IMG/VR virus record: IMGVR_UViG_3300037127_000017
Location: 1-55,852 of that record
DNA: 55,852 nucleotides
Reading direction: 5' to 3' (one strand)
Source of the DNA: a virus
Taxonomy: Duplodnaviria > Caudoviricetes
Below the pieces are notes generated by a model. That model saw nothing but the letters and a program-made list of their open reading frames with translations. It was not told the DNA's origin and made no database searches. This document shows positions 4,615 to 42,031 of this stretch, one piece after another. Each line of letters starts with the position of its first letter. Position 1 is the stretch's first letter. Position numbers and translations under genes: made by a program.

Positions 4615-5928
4615 ATGAAATCAGCAAAATTTTGGTTCCCAGTTCTATTATTAGGAATATTTATATCATTCCAATTTACAATAAAATTCTTTGAAAATAT
4701 GGCCATAAATGAATCTGAGAAAATATTGCTACAAGCAACAGCAATATTTATGATGATCTGTACTTATGGATTTAAAGTCATACAACATCAAAAAAAAGAA
4801 TTGAAAAAAAATACATGGGGAATAAGAATAATGATATTTGTTTTAATATTCTTCTCCATTTGTGCAAGTGGTGGAGCCTTGTGGAACAACAAAGAAAATG
4901 CCAAAAATTTGGCATATGTAAAAGATGAAGGATATAAGACTTTGTTAGATAAAGAAGCAAGAGAAGTTAAAGAATTAAGCTTATCAGCAGAACAAAAAAA
5001 ATATTTATCAGACAAATTAAAACTTGATAGTTCTGGATTGCTAGAAAAATATAAAGAAGATACTAGAAAAGAATATCAAAATGATATTGAAAAGATAAAC
5101 AATAAATATAATCCAGAGATCAAAAAAAGAGAACAGGCTGGATATTATAACCATCCAAGTTTAGGAAGTAAAACATTAAAAATACAACGGGATAGAGAAT
5201 TAAATGTTGTAGAACAAAAAATAAATAAAATAGCTAAAGAAAAGGTTAAAAATTTTGAAGCAAATTATGAAAATAATAAAAAATTATTAGATGAAGAAAA
5301 AAAATCTTATAATGATATAAAAGCAGAATTAGAAGAAACAACAAAATTAATATTAGAATATCAATCAGGTAAAAAAATATCAAAAAAAACAGGGTATGAT
5401 TTTTTCTTAACCTCTGTTCTTGGGAAAGGGGGATTTTACATTGCTTCATATTTATACCTAATAATTGCAATTGTATTAGAAATACTTATCCTTCAATTAA
5501 TAGAATATGTATTTAATATTTGCAAATTCAATATTTTTAGCTATTTCTCTTTTATTTTTGCATGGATAGGCAATATAAAATTTGTTTCTGGAATCTCTAG
5601 AAAAAAATTAATGAAAGCAGAAATGGGCATAAAAGCATATGATGAAAGTACATTCAAGAAAATGCCAGATCAAGAAATTATAAAAGAAGTTGCAAAACAT
5701 AAAAGACCAGATAAAACAAATAAAAATATAAACTTAATGAACAATGTATATAAAGAAATGAAAAAACATTACAAAAATACAGGAAAGATTTTATCAATAG
5801 AAAAATTAAGCAAAACTTTAAACAAAAGTACAACTAAGATTCGAGCAGCTAGAAAGATGTTAGAAGAAGAGGGTAAGTTGAAAATAATAGGGAAAAAAGG
5901 AAAAGCAAATATAATAAAAATAATTTAA
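4615..5928 (+). CDS. Membrane protein: 3 TM, long coiled coil, further TM, C-terminal HTH
   Basis: Hydrophobic N-terminal segments; K/E-rich coil; LSIEKLSKTLNKSTTKIRAARKMLEEEG wHTH; AGGAGG RBS. Confidence 0.7.
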   Translation: MKSAKFWFPVLLLGIFISFQFTIKFFENMAINESEKILLQATAIFMMICTYGFKVIQHQKKELKKNTWGIRIMIFVLIFFSICASGGALWNNKENAKNLAYVKDEGYKTLLDKEAREVKELSLSAEQKKYLSDKLKLDSSGLLEKYKEDTRKEYQNDIEKINNKYNPEIKKREQAGYYNHPSLGSKTLKIQRDRELNVVEQKINKIAKEKVKNFEANYENNKKLLDEEKKSYNDIKAELEETTKLILEYQSGKKISKKTGYDFFLTSVLGKGGFYIASYLYLIIAIVLEILILQLIEYVFNICKFNIFSYFSFIFAWIGNIKFVSGISRKKLMKAEMGIKAYDESTFKKMPDQEIIKEVAKHKRPDKTNKNINLMNNVYKEMKKHYKNTGKILSIEKLSKTLNKSTTKIRAARKMLEEEGKLKIIGKKGKANIIKII

Positions 5929-7204: not shown

Positions 7205-8555
7205 GATGAAAACAGAACTAAAAAAGCATCAATTAAAAGCAGTAGAAAAATTATCTAAAATAAAAATTGGTGCTTTATACATGGAGCAAGGGACTGGGAA
7301 AACAAGGACAGCTTTAGAGTTAATAAAAAATAGATTAGAAAGTAACAAGGTTGAAAAAGTTTTATGGCTATGTCCTTGCTCAATTAAATCAGAAATAAAA
7401 AACGAATTACATAAGCATATAGATATAGAGAATGATTTTTCAAACACGATATTTATTTTTGGAATAGAAAGCTTGTCAAGTTCAATAAAATTAAATTGTC
7501 TGTTATTAAGATTAGTTAAAGAATATAAAGTTTATCTAATTGTAGATGAAAGCAATTTAATAAAGAATCATCAAGCATTAAGAACCAAAAACATACAAAG
7601 ATTATCAGAAAAATGCAGTTATAAATTAATATTAAATGGCACTCCAGTATCAAGAAATGAAGCAGATTTATACTCACAATGGTATCTATTAGATTGGAGA
7701 ATACTAGGATATAAAAGTTTCTGGAGTTTTGAGCAGAATCACATGGAGTATAATGAATATGGAAGAATAGTCAACGTTTTAAATGTAGATTATTTATCAA
7801 AAAAAATAGCACCATATTCATATACAATAAAGAAAAGCGAGTGTATGAATTTACCAAAGAAAATTTATGAAGAATGCAGATATGCACTTACAGAACATCA
7901 ACAAATGCATTATATTGACATAAAAGATGCTTTTTTAATGCAAATAGATGAAGCACAACCAGAAACAATATACAGGTTTTTTACAGCGCTACAGCATGTT
8001 ACAGCAGGAAACCAAATAATAAGTCATTATGAAGATAGAATAAAAGCAGTACCATTTTTTAAAAATGTATATGATAATCCTAGGATTAAAAAATTTCTTA
8101 ACATATTGCCAGATGAAAAAACAATTATATGGTGCAAATATACCAGAGAAATAAAAGAAATAGAAAAAATATTAATAGATAATTATGGAGCTGACAAAGT
8201 GACAACTTTTTATGGAGAGATAAGACAAAAAAACAGAAGAAAAAATATCGAAAAATTTAGAGATAAAGCTAAATATTTCATAGCAAACAAAACATGTGCA
8301 GGATACGGTCTTAATATGCAATTTTGCAATAATGTAATCTATTATAATAATGATTTTGATCTGGCAACTAGATTACAATCAGAAGATAGAGTACATAGAA
8401 TGGGACAAGAAAACGAAGTATATATAAAGGACATAATAGCATATGAAACAATTGATCAAGTAATTATAAATTGTTTATACAGAAAAGAAAATTTAGTGGA
8501 AAGCTTTAAAAGAATGATAAATAAATACAAGAAAGAAGTGAAAAAAAATGGCTAA
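7197..8555 (+). CDS. SNF2-family (SF2) helicase
   Basis: MEQGTGKT, IVDES, LNGTP, AGYGLN, QSEDRVHRMGQ. Confidence 0.92.
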   Translation: MFKMKTELKKHQLKAVEKLSKIKIGALYMEQGTGKTRTALELIKNRLESNKVEKVLWLCPCSIKSEIKNELHKHIDIENDFSNTIFIFGIESLSSSIKLNCLLLRLVKEYKVYLIVDESNLIKNHQALRTKNIQRLSEKCSYKLILNGTPVSRNEADLYSQWYLLDWRILGYKSFWSFEQNHMEYNEYGRIVNVLNVDYLSKKIAPYSYTIKKSECMNLPKKIYEECRYALTEHQQMHYIDIKDAFLMQIDEAQPETIYRFFTALQHVTAGNQIISHYEDRIKAVPFFKNVYDNPRIKKFLNILPDEKTIIWCKYTREIKEIEKILIDNYGADKVTTFYGEIRQKNRRKNIEKFRDKAKYFIANKTCAGYGLNMQFCNNVIYYNNDFDLATRLQSEDRVHRMGQENEVYIKDIIAYETIDQVIINCLYRKENLVESFKRMINKYKKEVKKNG

Positions 8556-38280: not shown

Positions 38281-39141
38281 TTACTCCTTATATTTAATTA
38301 TTTCTTTTTTTATCTCCTCTACAGACATAAAATTATTATTATCTCCACTGTTTTTACCAATTTCTATTTCTTCATGTATTTTTTCGCCTTCTCTTAATCC
38401 AATAATTTTATATTCACAATCTAAAGCTTTAACTAAATCAATAATTCTAAATGATTTCATTGTATTCATATAAATTTTCCCAGCTTGCCAGTTGTAATTC
38501 ATGGAATGCCTTACAAGATCACAGGCTTTATCAATATCAATCCAATATCTTGTGCATTTTTCATGTGTGACAGGTAATCTTTGTACTCCTTTATCTTTAA
38601 GTTTTAAAAATAAAGGGATAACACTGCCATTGCTAAAAGCTACATTTCCATATCTAGCAATGCTAAAGCCTATATTGTCATCTGCTGCTAAATAATTAGC
38701 ATTTAAGAATATTTTTTCTGCCATCGCCTTGCTAATTCCATATGTATTTATAGGATTTACAGCTTTGTCTGTTGATATTAGCAAAGTTTTCTTTACTTTG
38801 TTCTTAATTGCACATTCAATAACATTTTCAGAACCGTTAATGTTCGTTTTTATAGCTTCTAGTGTATTATACTCGCATGCATCTATACACTTAATCGCCG
38901 CAGCGTGGATAACTTCATCGACACCTTTCATAGCAATGTTTAATCTTTCTTTATCTCTTACATCGCCGATAAAATAACGCATAAAACTAGGATTCCCTAG
39001 GGAATCCTTCAATTGTTTTTGTTTTTGCCAGTCTCGGCTATATACTATAATTTTATGATTTACAGACCACTTATTAATTAACTGATTTATATAAGCTGTT
39101 CCAAAGGTGCCAGTAGCTCCTGTTATTAATAAACTTTTCAT
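38281..39141 (-). CDS. pseB: UDP-GlcNAc 4,6-dehydratase (PseB/FlaA1-like)
   Basis: TGATGTFG, YSRD..KQ, FIGDVRD, HAAAIK, STDKAVNPINTYGISK, RYGNV..SNGSVIP, GLREGEKIHE. Confidence 0.88.
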   Translation of the reverse strand: MKSLLITGATGTFGTAYINQLINKWSVNHKIIVYSRDWQKQKQLKDSLGNPSFMRYFIGDVRDKERLNIAMKGVDEVIHAAAIKCIDACEYNTLEAIKTNINGSENVIECAIKNKVKKTLLISTDKAVNPINTYGISKAMAEKIFLNANYLAADDNIGFSIARYGNVAFSNGSVIPLFLKLKDKGVQRLPVTHEKCTRYWIDIDKACDLVRHSMNYNWQAGKIYMNTMKSFRIIDLVKALDCEYKIIGLREGEKIHEEIEIGKNSGDNNNFMSVEEIKKEIIKYKE

Positions 39142-39402: not shown

Positions 39403-40083
39403 TTACACTTCATCACAACCACCCCTAAAATATTCGATTATTTGTTCTGGTGTTCTTGCAAATTCGCCAGCATCCAATCCTGTACTGTCGCTTAGTTTGA
39501 AATGCCATTCTATAAAATCTGGTTGATAATTTTTGTATAATCCAAAATTAATAGTATGATCTGATATTCCATAACCATAATTTATAAAAGAATGTAGGTC
39601 ATCACTTCCACCAAATTTTATTTCGTAATCTGCTCCAGTAGCTGGGTATTTGCTTATACATAATAATTTTACAGCATTATTAAGATGCTGATACTGTTTT
39701 ATTTCTTCAATATTATCTAAACTGATATAAATTGGTAAACCACGCGGGATGTAATCAATTAAAGCTTTAGCTTTTTTGTTATTAGCTATTTTTACAAAAG
39801 GTATGTCATATTCCATCAAAAACATAAGTGATTCTTTGTCAAAAACACTAGCAGTTGTTTTTAATTTATTGTTGTATGCATATGTGTAGGCTTTATCGAA
39901 AAGATTTTGAGAAAGTGGTTTATTGTCACCAGCTTCTTTAAAAAGTTGATGTTTTATGATTATTTCGTAGTTTTTGAGCTCTTTTTGTATGTTTTTACAA
40001 GCTGTTATCATTTTTTTACAATATTCCCACCTGTTTTTATGTGTATTTCCACTGCCTAAATCAAGAATGATTTGTTTTTTCAT
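39403..40083 (-). CDS. Compact NeuB/PseI-like nonulosonic acid synthase (no C-terminal SAF domain)
   Basis: KHQLF, ASVFD, VKIA, LLCISKYPA, GISDHT, IEWHFKL. Confidence 0.8.
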   Translation of the reverse strand: MKKQIILDLGSGNTHKNRWEYCKKMITACKNIQKELKNYEIIIKHQLFKEAGDNKPLSQNLFDKAYTYAYNNKLKTTASVFDKESLMFLMEYDIPFVKIANNKKAKALIDYIPRGLPIYISLDNIEEIKQYQHLNNAVKLLCISKYPATGADYEIKFGGSDDLHSFINYGYGISDHTINFGLYKNYQPDFIEWHFKLSDSTGLDAGEFARTPEQIIEYFRGGCDEV

Positions 40084-40230
40084 TTTCTACCTCCTTAAAT
40101 AATAAAAAGACCACTTAGGTCTTTTTAGAAAGAGGGAAATTACAATAGTTTACATAAAACTCCCATTGTAAATAATTATACCCTATTTCTTTTTAAAATG
40201 CAAATTTATTCATTTTTATTAATTTTAGTT

Positions 40231-40438
40231 AAAAAAAATAGCAGATAAAATGTGTTATGACACCAAAAGCACTGAGACGGTCATATAGGTCATTGACATT
40301 CCGTTAAGCTTTTCACCACTAAGACATCTACCTATACCTGTTCTAGCATTAAAGCTACCTTATGCATTCATGTAAGGCCTGTTGTGCTACTCCTTAGATG
40401 ATGGCTACCTCTAAGCCAACATTTTTTATCTGCTATTT
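40231..40438 (-). ncRNA. Putative structured ncRNA mimicking the 23S rRNA uL11-binding domain (H43/H44) with a ~120-nt insertion
   Basis: - strand ATGTTGGCTTAGAGGTAGCCATCATCTAAGGAG...GTGTCATAACACA, enclosed by a 15-bp stem AAATAGCAGATAAAA/TTTTATCTGCTATTT ending in a T run. Confidence 0.75.
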
Positions 40439-40461
40439 ATTAATGGCATTACTATGTGATA

Positions 40462-40854
40462 TTACTTTGAATATGTTCCTAGAACATTTCTTTTTTGTCT
40501 GTTTAATGTTCTTTTTCTTAACCACATTAAAGCTTCTTCTAATTTTGTTATAGCTACAGCGTTTTCTCTGCAACTAAAATCACTATTTTGAAAATGTTCT
40601 AATCTATCAATTACTATTCCTATTAAATCTTCATTAAAAACTCCATTTAATCCACTTTCTTTTAAAGGACCTTCTTGGAAATGTATACTTCCAAGAATTA
40701 TATCATGAGCGCTTTTTATAAAATACTTATGTGGTGAATTGAAAGTGATTTCATCACTTTCAATATATGTATAATCTGTTGTTAATAAGTCATTATCCAC
40801 TTTTTTTAATTCTCCATTATAATTTTTCATATTAACTCCTTTATAATTTTTCAT
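40462..40854 (-). CDS. tad1: Tad1-like anti-Thoeris / anti-CBASS nucleotide sponge
   Basis: H.Y.I, IHFQEGP.KE.G.NGV..EDL..IV.DRL..FQ...FSCRENA.A.T.LEEALMWL.KR...R..RNVLGT, matching my recollection of the Tad1 family. Confidence 0.85.
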   Translation of the reverse strand: MKNYKGVNMKNYNGELKKVDNDLLTTDYTYIESDEITFNSPHKYFIKSAHDIILGSIHFQEGPLKESGLNGVFNEDLIGIVIDRLEHFQNSDFSCRENAVAITKLEEALMWLRKRTLNRQKRNVLGTYSK

Positions 40855-40864: not shown

Positions 40865-40995
40865 TATTCGTCCTTGATCTCCTACGATTCTTCTTAAAGA
40901 GTTTATGTATCGTCATACATTCTTTTTTTAAGCTGTTTTAACCTTATAAGCTACATGCCATATATTTATATTATACCATATAATTCAAGATCAAT

Positions 40996-41520
40996 TCAAC
41001 TAAACTCCTCTCTTAAAAAATAATAGAAGCTATTCATCATATATTTTGCAATGTATTCTTTTTTTATAAAAGCAATATGTATATTGTATCTATGCTGATA
41101 AGTTAATATAGAAGCAAAATAAGACTTTTTATTAAATTGTGTATTATAATTTCCTGTTATTATATCATTCAGATTAGAATTTTCTACTAATAATATAAAT
41201 TTACAATCCTTTTTTCTCAATAACTCATTTTCAAACTGAATTCTATTTTGAGCTAAATTATTACTTAATTCTTCTAAACTGTTTTTTCTTTCAATGACTA
41301 TTTGATTAGAAAAATACAAATCCCTATTAAAAGTTAGTTCATTTGCTTTTATATAAAAGCTGTAATCACCATAGTCAAGTTTTTTGTTTTTATATTCTAT
41401 TTTCTTTTTTTCTAAAAAATCAATTATGTGATTATTTTTTTGTTCTCTCGTGTCAATTAATACAACTAGATTTTTAAATATATTATCTATTTCTTCTTTA
41501 TTAAAATTAAGTATCTTCAT
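40996..41520 (-). CDS. ERCC4/XPF-family nuclease
   Basis: LIDTREQ, LDYGDYS, IERKNSLEEL. Confidence 0.9.
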   Translation of the reverse strand: MKILNFNKEEIDNIFKNLVVLIDTREQKNNHIIDFLEKKKIEYKNKKLDYGDYSFYIKANELTFNRDLYFSNQIVIERKNSLEELSNNLAQNRIQFENELLRKKDCKFILLVENSNLNDIITGNYNTQFNKKSYFASILTYQHRYNIHIAFIKKEYIAKYMMNSFYYFLREEFS

Positions 41521-42031
41521 AATACCACCTTTTAAACGCCTCAGCATCGATTGAAAAATAGATTGAATCGTAACATTCGCCTAAGAAAAATTTTCTTTGT
41601 GGCAATATAGTTACATACATCTCATATTTTTGTATTATTTTGTACCAAAAATCCACAGCTTTGCTACAAAGATAAGTTTCTCCGTAGATATTAAGTAATC
41701 CCATATTATTAAAACCATGCTCTAGTAATTCATGCACCGCTCTGGTCCCATGTCCTAAATGTTGATATTTTTTTCTAATAAATAATGATATTTCAGCCAG
41801 ACCATTTTCCCATTCGATATTAGTTATGCCACCCATTCCAATTAATTCATTTTTCATCTTTATTGCAAAATATCTATGATTTGAATTTCTATTACAAACA
41901 ACATTATTATAAAAATCTTCTTGCATTTCTCTTGTTAAAAAAAAAGAAGTCCTTAACCCACTTATATCATTATTCCGTTCTTGCCTTATTATTTCACAAG
42001 CTTCTTTAGTTAATGCATCTAATCTCAGCAC
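41507..42031 (-). CDS. GNAT N-acetyltransferase (PseH / RimJ-like)
   Basis: IRQERN, IGMGGITNIEW.NG.AEISLFI...YQHLGHG..A...LL.HGF. Confidence 0.8.
   Translation of the reverse strand: MLRLDALTKEACEIIRQERNNDISGLRTSFFLTREMQEDFYNNVVCNRNSNHRYFAIKMKNELIGMGGITNIEWENGLAEISLFIRKKYQHLGHGTRAVHELLEHGFNNMGLLNIYGETYLCSKAVDFWYKIIQKYEMYVTILPQRKFFLGECYDSIYFSIDAEAFKRWYYEDT

Follow-up and report, generated by a model that had tools for sequence, protein, structure and literature searches.

The stretch of DNA analysed here in full, hereafter the window, is the 55.8-kb IMG/VR virus record IMGVR_UViG_3300037127_000017 (Caudoviricetes; estimated completeness 53%), and it carries on its minus strand, at positions 40438-40231, an RNA element resembling the GTPase-associated centre (GAC) of 23S ribosomal RNA (rRNA). 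This element lies downstream of an open reading frame (ORF) of 130 amino acids (40462..40854, minus strand), from which it is separated by a gap of 23 nt. An initial annotation, made from the sequence alone, had named this upstream gene tad1, and database searches bear the name out: its product matches ‘Thoeris anti-defense 1’ (PDB 8kbb; E 6.4e-29, 104 bits), PF24729 (28.6 bits versus a cut-off of 27) and phrog_2428 (E 1.5e-41). A promoter-like site upstream of the tad1-like ORF (40970..40999, minus strand; TTGAAT, 18 nt, TATAAT with TG; 10 of 12 consensus matches) is the likely start of a transcript predicted to run through tad1 into the RNA element. Another such site is found downstream of the element (40175..40204, minus strand; TTTGCA, 18 nt, TATAAT; 10 of 12 consensus matches), and since it would start the following unit, headed by a NeuB-like gene, the element appears to end its own transcription unit.

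The minus-strand sequence of 40438-40231 agrees letter by letter with that given by the initial annotation, and its parts follow one another in the order 5' arm, unpaired A, H43-like hairpin, CTAAG, GAGT, insert, TTTG, GTGTCATAACACA, 3' arm and T run. In what follows, rRNA numbering was assigned to the phage RNAs by aligning them with the corresponding E. coli sequence and with the Rfam consensus, and H42, H43 and H44 denote helices 42, 43 and 44 of 23S rRNA. The 15-nt 5' arm of a closing stem (40424..40438) stands in place of H42, and a single unpaired A separates this arm (40438-40424) from a 25-nt H43-like hairpin (40398..40422) that corresponds to 1057-1081, includes the 1067 loop and has G at 1070 and U at 1072. 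Then come the 1082-1086 mini-hairpin CUAAG with a C-G closing pair (40393-40397) and GAGU at 1087-1090 (40389-40392). The latter is the bacterial consensus of the Rfam large-subunit (LSU) model and hence no departure from 23S rRNA. An inserted domain of 121 nt (40268..40388) follows, which according to the Rfam bacterial consensus sits between 1090 and 1091, and not between 1089 and 1090 as first proposed. Folding this insert alone returns the closing helix AGCAC/GUGCU and the three hairpins that had been named for it. The remainder consists of a UUUG linker (40264-40267), the upper hairpin of H44 (1091-1103; 40251-40263) formed by GTGTCATAACACA, with a U1092-A1099 pair, C1095 and A1101, the 3' arm complementary to the 5' arm (40236-40250), and a terminator-like run of eight T (40231-40238), which overlaps the end of the 3' arm; all of these lie on the minus strand. 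The closing stem comprises 15 contiguous pairs, as had been stated, directly 5' of the eight T, and in this respect it has the form of an intrinsic terminator; a simple terminator scan left it out because the loop limit of that scan is 8 nt. A1067 is retained in the window element whereas 1095 is C, a feature that the initial annotation had passed over. No ORF of at least 30 amino acids in the window's ORF list lies wholly within the element, and ARAGORN reports no transfer RNA (tRNA) or transfer-messenger RNA (tmRNA) gene in the window. The fold z-score of the single sequence is -1.38, a measure that is uninformative for an RNA with tertiary structure.

The likeness to 23S rRNA is perceptible by direct sequence comparison. 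A 51-nt piece (40375-40425) matches 23S rRNA in every one of 5426 complete E. coli genomes (82-88% identity; median seven places per genome); the E-values are weak (0.07-0.3, with 28 Gb searched), and the five matches listed are all annotated as 23S rRNA. In one relative, L032 (such L numbers designate the loci), the core aligns to positions 1092-1151 of the Rfam bacterial LSU model, i.e. to the GAC, with 18.4 bits and an E-value of 0.0014, below the gathering score of 50 set for that model (RF02541). The window element itself holds H43, the 1082-1086 closing pair and the H44 pairs 1087-1102, 1091-1100 and 1092-1099. The sequence pattern expected of the tertiary triple, in its C.(C-G) form or the isosteric U.(U-A) form, is present in the window and in its family; the window carries U/U/A at 1072/1092/1099, a class also found in relatives.

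Compared with the GAC of 23S rRNA, the phage RNA shares the H43 hairpin and its 1067 loop, the 1082-1086 mini-hairpin, the H44 hairpin and its 1095 loop, and the triples at 1071 and 1072, and it shows natural covariations known from rRNA. Indeed, the available excerpts of two structural papers describe C1072 as pairing with C1092 and bonding G1099, stacked on the G1071.(G1091-C1100) triple, and the closing pair of the 1082-1086 mini-hairpin as U-A in E. coli and C-G in H. marismortui (PMC2952862; PMC8614978). The phage RNA differs in being free-standing, phage-encoded and outside any 23S gene, in having a domain between 1090 and 1091 followed by a UUUR linker, in having A rather than U at 1101, and in leaving A1067 and 1095-1097 free to vary. 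In addition, H42 and the kink-turn of rRNA are swapped for a plain variable helix, which across the family measures 4-16 bp and has no conserved sequence. This last difference makes binding of the stalk (the uL10 stalk base), one of the ligands initially proposed, unlikely.

A covariance model, R1, was built from a seed of 22 members that excludes both the window and L047, its nearest relative. R1 matches the window at 40235-40439 (minus strand; 105.3 bits, E 6.9e-31, model positions 1-170 of 170), which upholds the reading of the element as a non-coding RNA resembling the 23S GAC, and this is the single significant match in the 55.8 kb (next best 10.1 bits, E 0.27). Real 23S GACs are matched by R1 over approximately 80 nt only, at 46-62 bits (59.3 bits in the 23S genes of two Latescibacterota genomes and 46-62 bits in the Flintibacter family). 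The covariance-model search for homologues that the initial annotation had advised returns a large phage family with covarying helices. Three pattern scans of IMG/VR gave 2, 45 and 4 loci, scans of 185,579 species genomes and of metagenomes 23 loci each, and a fourth scan of IMG/VR, whose pattern was the 5' half of H43 only, at least 118 stretches. R1 confirms 42 of the 45 loci of the 45-locus scan, the 23 metagenome loci without exception, and 88 of 93 new loci among the matches listed from the fourth scan; the five that it missed are L133 (complete by pattern), L120 (divergent) and L153, L182 and L183 (chance pattern matches). Applied to the 23 genome-contig loci, it finds 10 contigs carrying 11 elements, plus two real 23S genes. 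Strict extraction, requiring the core, the H44 hairpin and at least four contiguous closing pairs, led from 168 core matches among the listed scan matches to 117 complete and finally 90 distinct complete elements, it being understood that the search patterns shape which variants were recovered. The layout common to these elements consists of a variable closing stem, the H43-like hairpin, the 1082-1086 mini-hairpin, the insert of H44, the UUUR linker and the H44 loop. Insert site, UUUR linker and A1101 (86 of 90) together form a family signature not found in real 23S rRNA; the linker is UUUG in 31, UUUA in seven and UUAG in one of the first 39 members, and the window has the full signature (an insert closed by AGCAC/GUGCU, UUUG and A1101).

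The same RNA is thereby predicted in well over a hundred other phages. The family is widespread, with at least 118 IMG/VR stretches by one pattern and members in gut, freshwater, marine and wetland metagenomes; among public sequencing runs, matches to the window element were listed for no RNA run and for a single DNA run, of a wetland metagenome that may be the source of the window. The genome-contig carriers, rare among cellular genomes, are mostly metagenome-assembled genomes (MAGs) of gut Clostridia, along with the isolates Flintibacter muris DSM 110149 and ‘Bacterium D16-76’. Within the Flintibacter family, the R1 search detects the element in one of 151 genomes, which is the known prophage copy, and no full-length element was found in E. 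coli genomes with the copy of phage GAP32 as query. In Flintibacter muris, the prophage copy and the GAC of the host's 23S rRNA diverge at position 1101, in the 1082-1086 loop and along the 3' strand of H43, so the former is not a recent copy of host rRNA. Each of the four phage records that are at least 90% complete holds one copy. Two contigs, L058 (from a Cand. Limenecus MAG) and L026, each bear two different members, no more than approximately 1.2 kb apart and with distinct inserts, so that paralogues with different inserted domains can coexist on one contig.

Whether the fold is maintained was assessed on 22 aligned members, with a structure written from the rRNA model and 500 shuffles. 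The proportion of pairing cells reaches 85.9%, versus 68.6% in the shuffles, and the covariation score 0.494, versus 0.170, a value attained by none of the 500 shuffles; with structures slid by 1-3 columns the score is at most 0.194. All 12 counted pairs of the closing stem change on both sides and the insert-closing helix covaries at four of its five pairs, whereas the H43 pairs are invariant in 22 of 22 members and, because they never vary, give no covariation evidence either way. RNAalifold alone, supplied with no structure, recovers identical helices. Among the 90 distinct elements, positions 1072/1092/1099 read C/C/G in 61 (59 parsed, plus L140 and L180, which the pattern reads out of register as it starts two bases early), U/U/A in 21 and U/U/G in eight, with no discordant combination. 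G1071 is retained in 89 of 90, and the 1082/1086 closing pair is U-A in 42, C-G in 36, C-A in three and A-U in one (eight unparsed). Thirteen of the elements with U1072 were new from the metagenome scan, the pattern of which leaves out the 3' half, and all 13 have U1092-A1099. These covariation counts carry no correction for phylogeny, and relatedness inflates them. Both triple classes occur within insert class A (L002 versus L033) and again within class B (L096, L098, L133 and L048 versus L155, L131 and L104), so the concerted switch of the triple would have arisen several times. The initial annotation had judged most differences from 23S rRNA to be compensatory, implying selection on tertiary structure rather than a decaying rRNA fragment, and both statements stand, as the GAC pairing is kept by concerted changes across 90 distinct relatives, which argues that selection acts on the fold. 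With this, the RNA family very probably mimics the GAC fold, i.e. the three-way junction of H43 and H44 with its loop-loop contacts. On the same comparative grounds, it is well supported that the element encodes a stable phage RNA that is non-coding and acts in trans, and that this RNA reproduces the GAC as a free-standing unit and belongs to a large unannotated family.

The 1067 and H44 loop bases are the contacts of thiostrepton and the elongation factor EF-G, and in the Rfam bacterial 23S consensus the H44 loop bases and A1067/A1095 are printed in capitals. In the phage RNAs, 1067 is A in 64, G in 25 and C in one of the 90 elements, 1068 is A instead of G in 19, and 1061 varies between U, A and G; 1095 is A in 81 of the 88 elements parsed for the tally of loop types (the window having C), 1096 is A in 75 of these 88, and 1097 is free. 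The contact bases of thiostrepton and EF-G are relaxed and the fold-forming bases fixed, a pattern from which we infer that the fold rather than factor contacts is under selection. Members without insert also exist: these ‘mini-GAC’ elements (L140/L180, L163 and L188) are approximately 80 nt long, have their own closing stems and lie on phage contigs, and because of them the core alone appears sufficient. Since L140 and L180 share a variant of the H43 3' strand with Flintibacter 23S rRNA, these two are possibly more recent captures. A second tolerated insertion site is seen in L114, L129/L143/L177, L147/L166, L149/L152, L162 and L187, where U1078, in the 3' strand of H43, has given way to a hairpin.

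The inserts between 1090 and 1091 range from 23 nt (L016) to approximately 400 nt and fall into classes. Those of class A (13 of 90) end in a small hairpin, made of a covarying pair and a tetraloop, followed by UAAGG. Those of class B, approximately 280-400 nt long, contain the 12-mer of the sarcin-ricin loop (SRL), AGUACGAGAGGA, in a hairpin whose stems differ yet stay paired. This 12-mer matches the SRL of E. coli; its match to the corresponding region of the archaeal LSU model is weak (8.4 bits, E 3.5). It was seen in eight distinct contexts (one with a single G variant) and in L010, the class B relatives concerned being L032, L096, L098, L108, L115, L135, L141, L155 and L010. Class B RNAs are in this way predicted to join mimics of the GAC and of the SRL in one molecule. 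The insert of the window shares its closing helix, three-hairpin layout and 3' end with L047 only, and no SRL-like motif was found in it by pattern or by eye. A blastn-short comparison of the inserts with the E. coli rrn operon found no rRNA piece besides the SRL, in L010 and L032, the rest being at chance level.

Members of the family are also present in five cultured phages, in whose GenBank/RefSeq records the element is blank or mis-called. They are Pseudomonas phage pf16 (NC_041881.1 29407-29613; R1 88.8 bits; between tRNA-Asn and tRNA-Pro), Pseudomonas phage UNO-G1W1 (L200; 96.7 bits; flush between tRNA-Trp and tRNA-Arg, with a gap of approximately 3 nt), Aeromonas phage 4_4572 (85.1 bits; 20 nt ahead of tRNA-Met), Cronobacter jumbo phage GAP32 (83.4 bits; intergenic) and Xanthomonas jumbo phage XacN1 (79.6 bits; just downstream of a 2'-5' RNA ligase gene). 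In UNO-G1W1 (PP551948.2 70501-70608), a ‘hypothetical protein’ of 35 amino acids is annotated antisense across the element, between the two tRNA genes, and this is probably a spurious call. Pseudomonas phages Astolliot and Milchi, in which blastn gave partial matches, are candidate carriers. Used as query against INPHARED phages, the window element gives no blastn match, and typical members did retrieve cultured phages. One candidate was set aside: Paenibacillus phage Pd_22F (L196; MZ092003.1, at approximately 83.9 kb) has an insert-less GAC stretch near the end of its record, with flanks that go on like true 23S rRNA, and this stretch is probably a piece of host rRNA or a product of misassembly rather than a member of the family.

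The neighbourhood of tRNA genes extends beyond these phages. A tRNA gene lies within 300 nt of the element in 40 of the 90 loci (within 100 nt in 34), on the same strand in all 40, versus 21.5 for random placement in the same loci. In L002, the closest relative of the window by its core, only 1 nt separates the closing stem from the tRNA before it, and 3 nt from the tRNA after it; this locus further holds a suppressor-type tRNA (anticodon tta, 7988-8068) right before the element and a tmRNA (5544-5840), hints of stop-codon recoding or translation rescue functions. A U run after the closing stem is found in 10 of 90 members, versus two of 90 upstream control windows, and as a trait of so few members it is a local feature that does not define the family. 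No conserved protein neighbour emerged from 163 flanking ORFs, in which the largest cluster has four sequences, all from close relatives. Among 140 flanking ORFs, the top Pfam family occurs three times and Acb2/Tad1 is not among the families with two or more members; rare neighbours are MazG (three), the CCA-adding enzyme (two), HD domain (two), RlaP (one), cREC_REC (cyclic-phosphate processing; one) and NADAR (one), and there is no ribosomal-protein family among the 25 listed of the 35 families. The position after an anti-defence gene, which the initial annotation had offered as a functional clue, loses weight accordingly, since no Pfam family recurs in more than three of the 140 ORFs and what does recur beside the element is tRNA genes on its own strand; the Tad1 neighbour, though genuine, is not a feature of the whole family. 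A uL11 gene (PF00298) and an EF-Tu-type GTPase gene (PF00009) were each looked for in a set of five phage records, two of every set being at least 90% complete, and found in none, for which reason the partner of the RNA must presumably be a host protein.

The best explanation as a whole, to which we assign a probability of roughly 45%, is that the element encodes a GAC-mimic RNA acting in trans as a decoy that binds host uL11. In the window phage, the RNA would be transcribed behind tad1 and end at its own closing stem and U run. In many other phages the element sits flush between tRNA genes, and its release there would fall to RNase P and to the processing of tRNA 3' ends. Its action in trans would consist in offering the GAC fold to a component of the host. 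The isolated GAC domain is an autonomous high-affinity binding site for uL11, so that such an RNA should draw host uL11 away from ribosomes. Translation continues when ribosomes lack uL11, but RelA can then no longer be activated, as known from relC/rplK mutants; capture of uL11 would leave relaxed ribosomes as in relC mutants and blunt the stringent response during infection. In class B relatives, the GAC and SRL copies would present both halves of the factor-docking site. Three points lead us to rank uL11 first among ligands: its autonomous site, the conservation of the fold rather than of factor-contact bases, and the existence of members that have no insert. That uL11 is the ligand seems to us an even call, whereas control of RelA or of the stringent response as the purpose is doubtful.

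Several observations weigh against the proposal of a GAC mimic that captures uL11. The Rfam LSU model reports nothing on the window element, neither at E-values up to 10 over 40050-40650 nor in a search of the whole record (0 matches). Positions 1073-1090 were fixed by the first search pattern, and in the 50 elements found without that constraint AUCAU occupies 1077-1081, part of the uL11 contact surface, in 35; the other 15 have single changes, a one-base deletion or the second insertion replacing U1078, and this insertion might disturb the uL11 site. The hypothesis leaves unexplained the large, diverse and partly conserved inserts, the UUUR linker and the A1101 signature. Depletion of uL11 would slow phage translation too. 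Finally, the SRL copy of class B and the RNA-repair and tRNA neighbours fit a toxin decoy at least as well.

Such a decoy, or competitive inhibitor, would intercept a toxin or immune effector attacking the GAC or the SRL, as part of a phage ‘translation-protection’ set with tRNA arrays and RNA-repair genes. To our knowledge, no anti-phage system targeting the GAC has been described. Toxins with these targets do exist, as Tre23 ADP-ribosylates H44 at 1095-1098 and VapC-mt20/26 cleave the SRL (excerpts of PMC8661411), although Tre23 is an interbacterial toxin. Class B RNAs copy precisely these two targets, with the exact SRL 12-mer in hairpins with covarying stems, but the SRL copy is absent from most members, including the window. 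The tRNA-gene neighbours and, rarely, RNA-repair and nucleotide enzymes (with the 2'-5' RNA ligase adjoining the element of XacN1) fit the idea, as does the anti-defence gene that the window element follows, but the neighbour counts are small. Variation at 1067 and 1095-1097 would suit non-modifiable inhibitors; a stoichiometric decoy would, on the other hand, compete poorly with tens of thousands of ribosomes unless it bound far more tightly. Taken as a whole, this reading is rather unlikely, yet it ranks only a little behind uL11 capture. A broader wording, which we hold tentatively, covers both: a phage ‘ribosome decoy’, a factor-docking site rebuilt in trans and expressed from tRNA arrays, may remove uL11 or GTPases or neutralise immunity or toxins at both rRNA sites. 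If instead the RNA bypassed uL11 and acted as a sponge for factors of the GTPase centre (EF-G, other translational GTPases, RelA), the presence of both GAC and SRL in class B RNAs would find an explanation, since the two together are described as the factor-binding site (excerpts of PMC8661411). The factor-contact bases are the least conserved, however (26 of 90 members have G or C at 1067, and position 1095 is C in the window), and most members are without SRL. Munishkin and Wool reportedly found in 1997 that EF-G binds isolated oligoribonucleotides of both sites, but isolated RNA fragments bind factors weakly, and a sponge of this kind is quite improbable.

The diversity of the inserts could also mean that they are the real effector, displayed by a GAC module serving as a compact, nuclease-resistant and perhaps uL11-protected handle. 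A constant core with very diverse inserts of approximately 23-400 nt in recognisable classes, the two different copies in one contig (L058, L026) and the conservation of some insert motifs, such as the class A hairpin and UAAGG in 13 of 90, agree with such a scaffold. Yet insert-less members exist, the 23-nt insert of L016 can hardly be an effector, and the tertiary triple and loop-loop contacts are kept more strictly than a handle needs, which leaves the scaffold improbable. In the window, the closing stem and U run resemble an intrinsic terminator behind tad1, and a few loci (L008, L006) have ORF starts approximately 20-50 nt downstream, as would be expected of a purely cis-acting element, be it a terminator, a stabiliser of the 3' untranslated region (UTR) of the tad1 mRNA or a leader of the downstream gene. 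But the U run is confined to 10 of the 90 members, 40 of the 90 are placed among tRNA genes where there is no ORF that they could regulate, no neighbour gene recurs, and a terminator needs none of the tertiary covariation of the GAC, so that cis action alone is highly improbable. Least probable of all, to the point of being negligible, is a functionless piece of captured, decaying host 23S rRNA or an assembly contaminant. Such pieces exist, as shown by Pd_22F and by several small ‘phage’ records whose insert-less stretches have true 23S flanks. The family, by contrast, displays concerted changes and its own signature of insert site, UUUR linker and A1101, the Flintibacter muris prophage copy is unlike the host's 23S GAC, and the window holds no other LSU segment (Rfam at gathering score; LSU model search of the record). 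Covariation refutes the debris reading as far as sequence analysis reaches. A genuine 23S gene or fragment was likewise rejected, with no Rfam hit at gathering score in the window and no LSU match on the element.

The initial annotation had asked whether the motif already bears a name, and Rfam 15 has no such family: the window yields no hit at gathering score, and a search of 40050-40650 by E-value none on the element. For relatives, Rfam 15 returns no hit in L010, and in L098 a weak LSU GAC hit and a tRNA only. In the open full-text literature, which leaves aside most subscription journals and supplements, no prior description of a phage GAC-mimic RNA was found. The element is a member of none of the nearest known kinds, i.e. 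the rRNA domain, ribosomal-protein leaders, GOLLD/ROOL and other phage RNA decoys. Autoregulatory leaders of ribosomal proteins (L10_leader; the L1, S8 and S15 sites), which are Rfam families, mimic rRNA binding sites and are, like the phage RNA, extra-ribosomal RNAs imitating an rRNA protein-binding site. They are, however, cis-acting 5' UTRs of cellular ribosomal-protein operons that reproduce local features only, whereas the phage RNA is a near-complete copy of a tertiary domain, lies amid tRNA or unrelated genes with no ribosomal-protein gene nearby, and matches no Rfam leader. Identity with such a leader was rejected, the element lying behind tad1, with a U run and then a further promoter-like site after it, and the uL11 gene being found in none of the five phage records. 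RNA anti-CRISPRs, which mimic CRISPR repeats, and pseudo-ToxI antitoxin RNAs are phage RNA decoys that, like the proposed one, imitate a cellular RNA to capture its protein partner; the object imitated here is instead a domain of ribosomal RNA. The ‘ribosome-in-pieces’ oligoribonucleotides of the thiostrepton and sarcin-ricin domains are laboratory constructs, and they too show isolated GAC and SRL RNAs folding and binding ligands on their own. Those fragments are man-made, while the phage family is natural and has its own insertions, class B joining both domains in one natural RNA. GOLLD and ROOL are large structured phage RNAs of unknown function, often near tRNA genes, and to that extent similar. 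They are not rRNA mimics, though, and no sequence or model match links them to the element (no Rfam hit at gathering score). They form homo-oligomeric cages (excerpts of PMC12286853).

If the proposed role is true, the element would represent the first natural free-standing copy of an rRNA functional centre used by a virus, and would parallel, at the level of rRNA, the arrays of tRNA genes by which phages replace or shield tRNAs. Phages would then have a new route onto host translation or the stringent response, or else there would be an undescribed class of host defences that strike the GAC or the SRL. The family also amounts to a natural mutagenesis series of the GAC fold, with two tolerated insertion sites, a switch of the triple from C.C-G to U.U-A and a free 1067, which could serve RNA structural biologists as well as studies of thiopeptides and uL11. 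As regards annotation, the loci concerned are currently blank or under spurious ORFs, as in UNO-G1W1.

Around the element, the window contains three minus-strand genes of a sugar pathway (38281-39141, 39403-40083 and 41507-42031), whose products are a PseB-like dehydratase of polysaccharide biosynthesis (Polysacc_synt_2, E 3.2e-79), a member of the NeuB family and a GNAT acetyltransferase; the trio is suggestive of a phage-encoded pathway to a nonulosonic acid of the pseudaminic-acid type. Between the downstream promoter-like site (40204-40175) and the start of the NeuB-like ORF (40083), a 10-bp hairpin with a T-rich tail (40103-40127, minus strand) could either terminate a small RNA or act as a leader or attenuator; the Rfam rimP-leader match in this region does not rise above chance (E 0.71). 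The tad1 unit is closely preceded by a gene for an ERCC4-type nuclease (40996-41547, minus strand; Pfam E 3.3e-14; phrog_3490).

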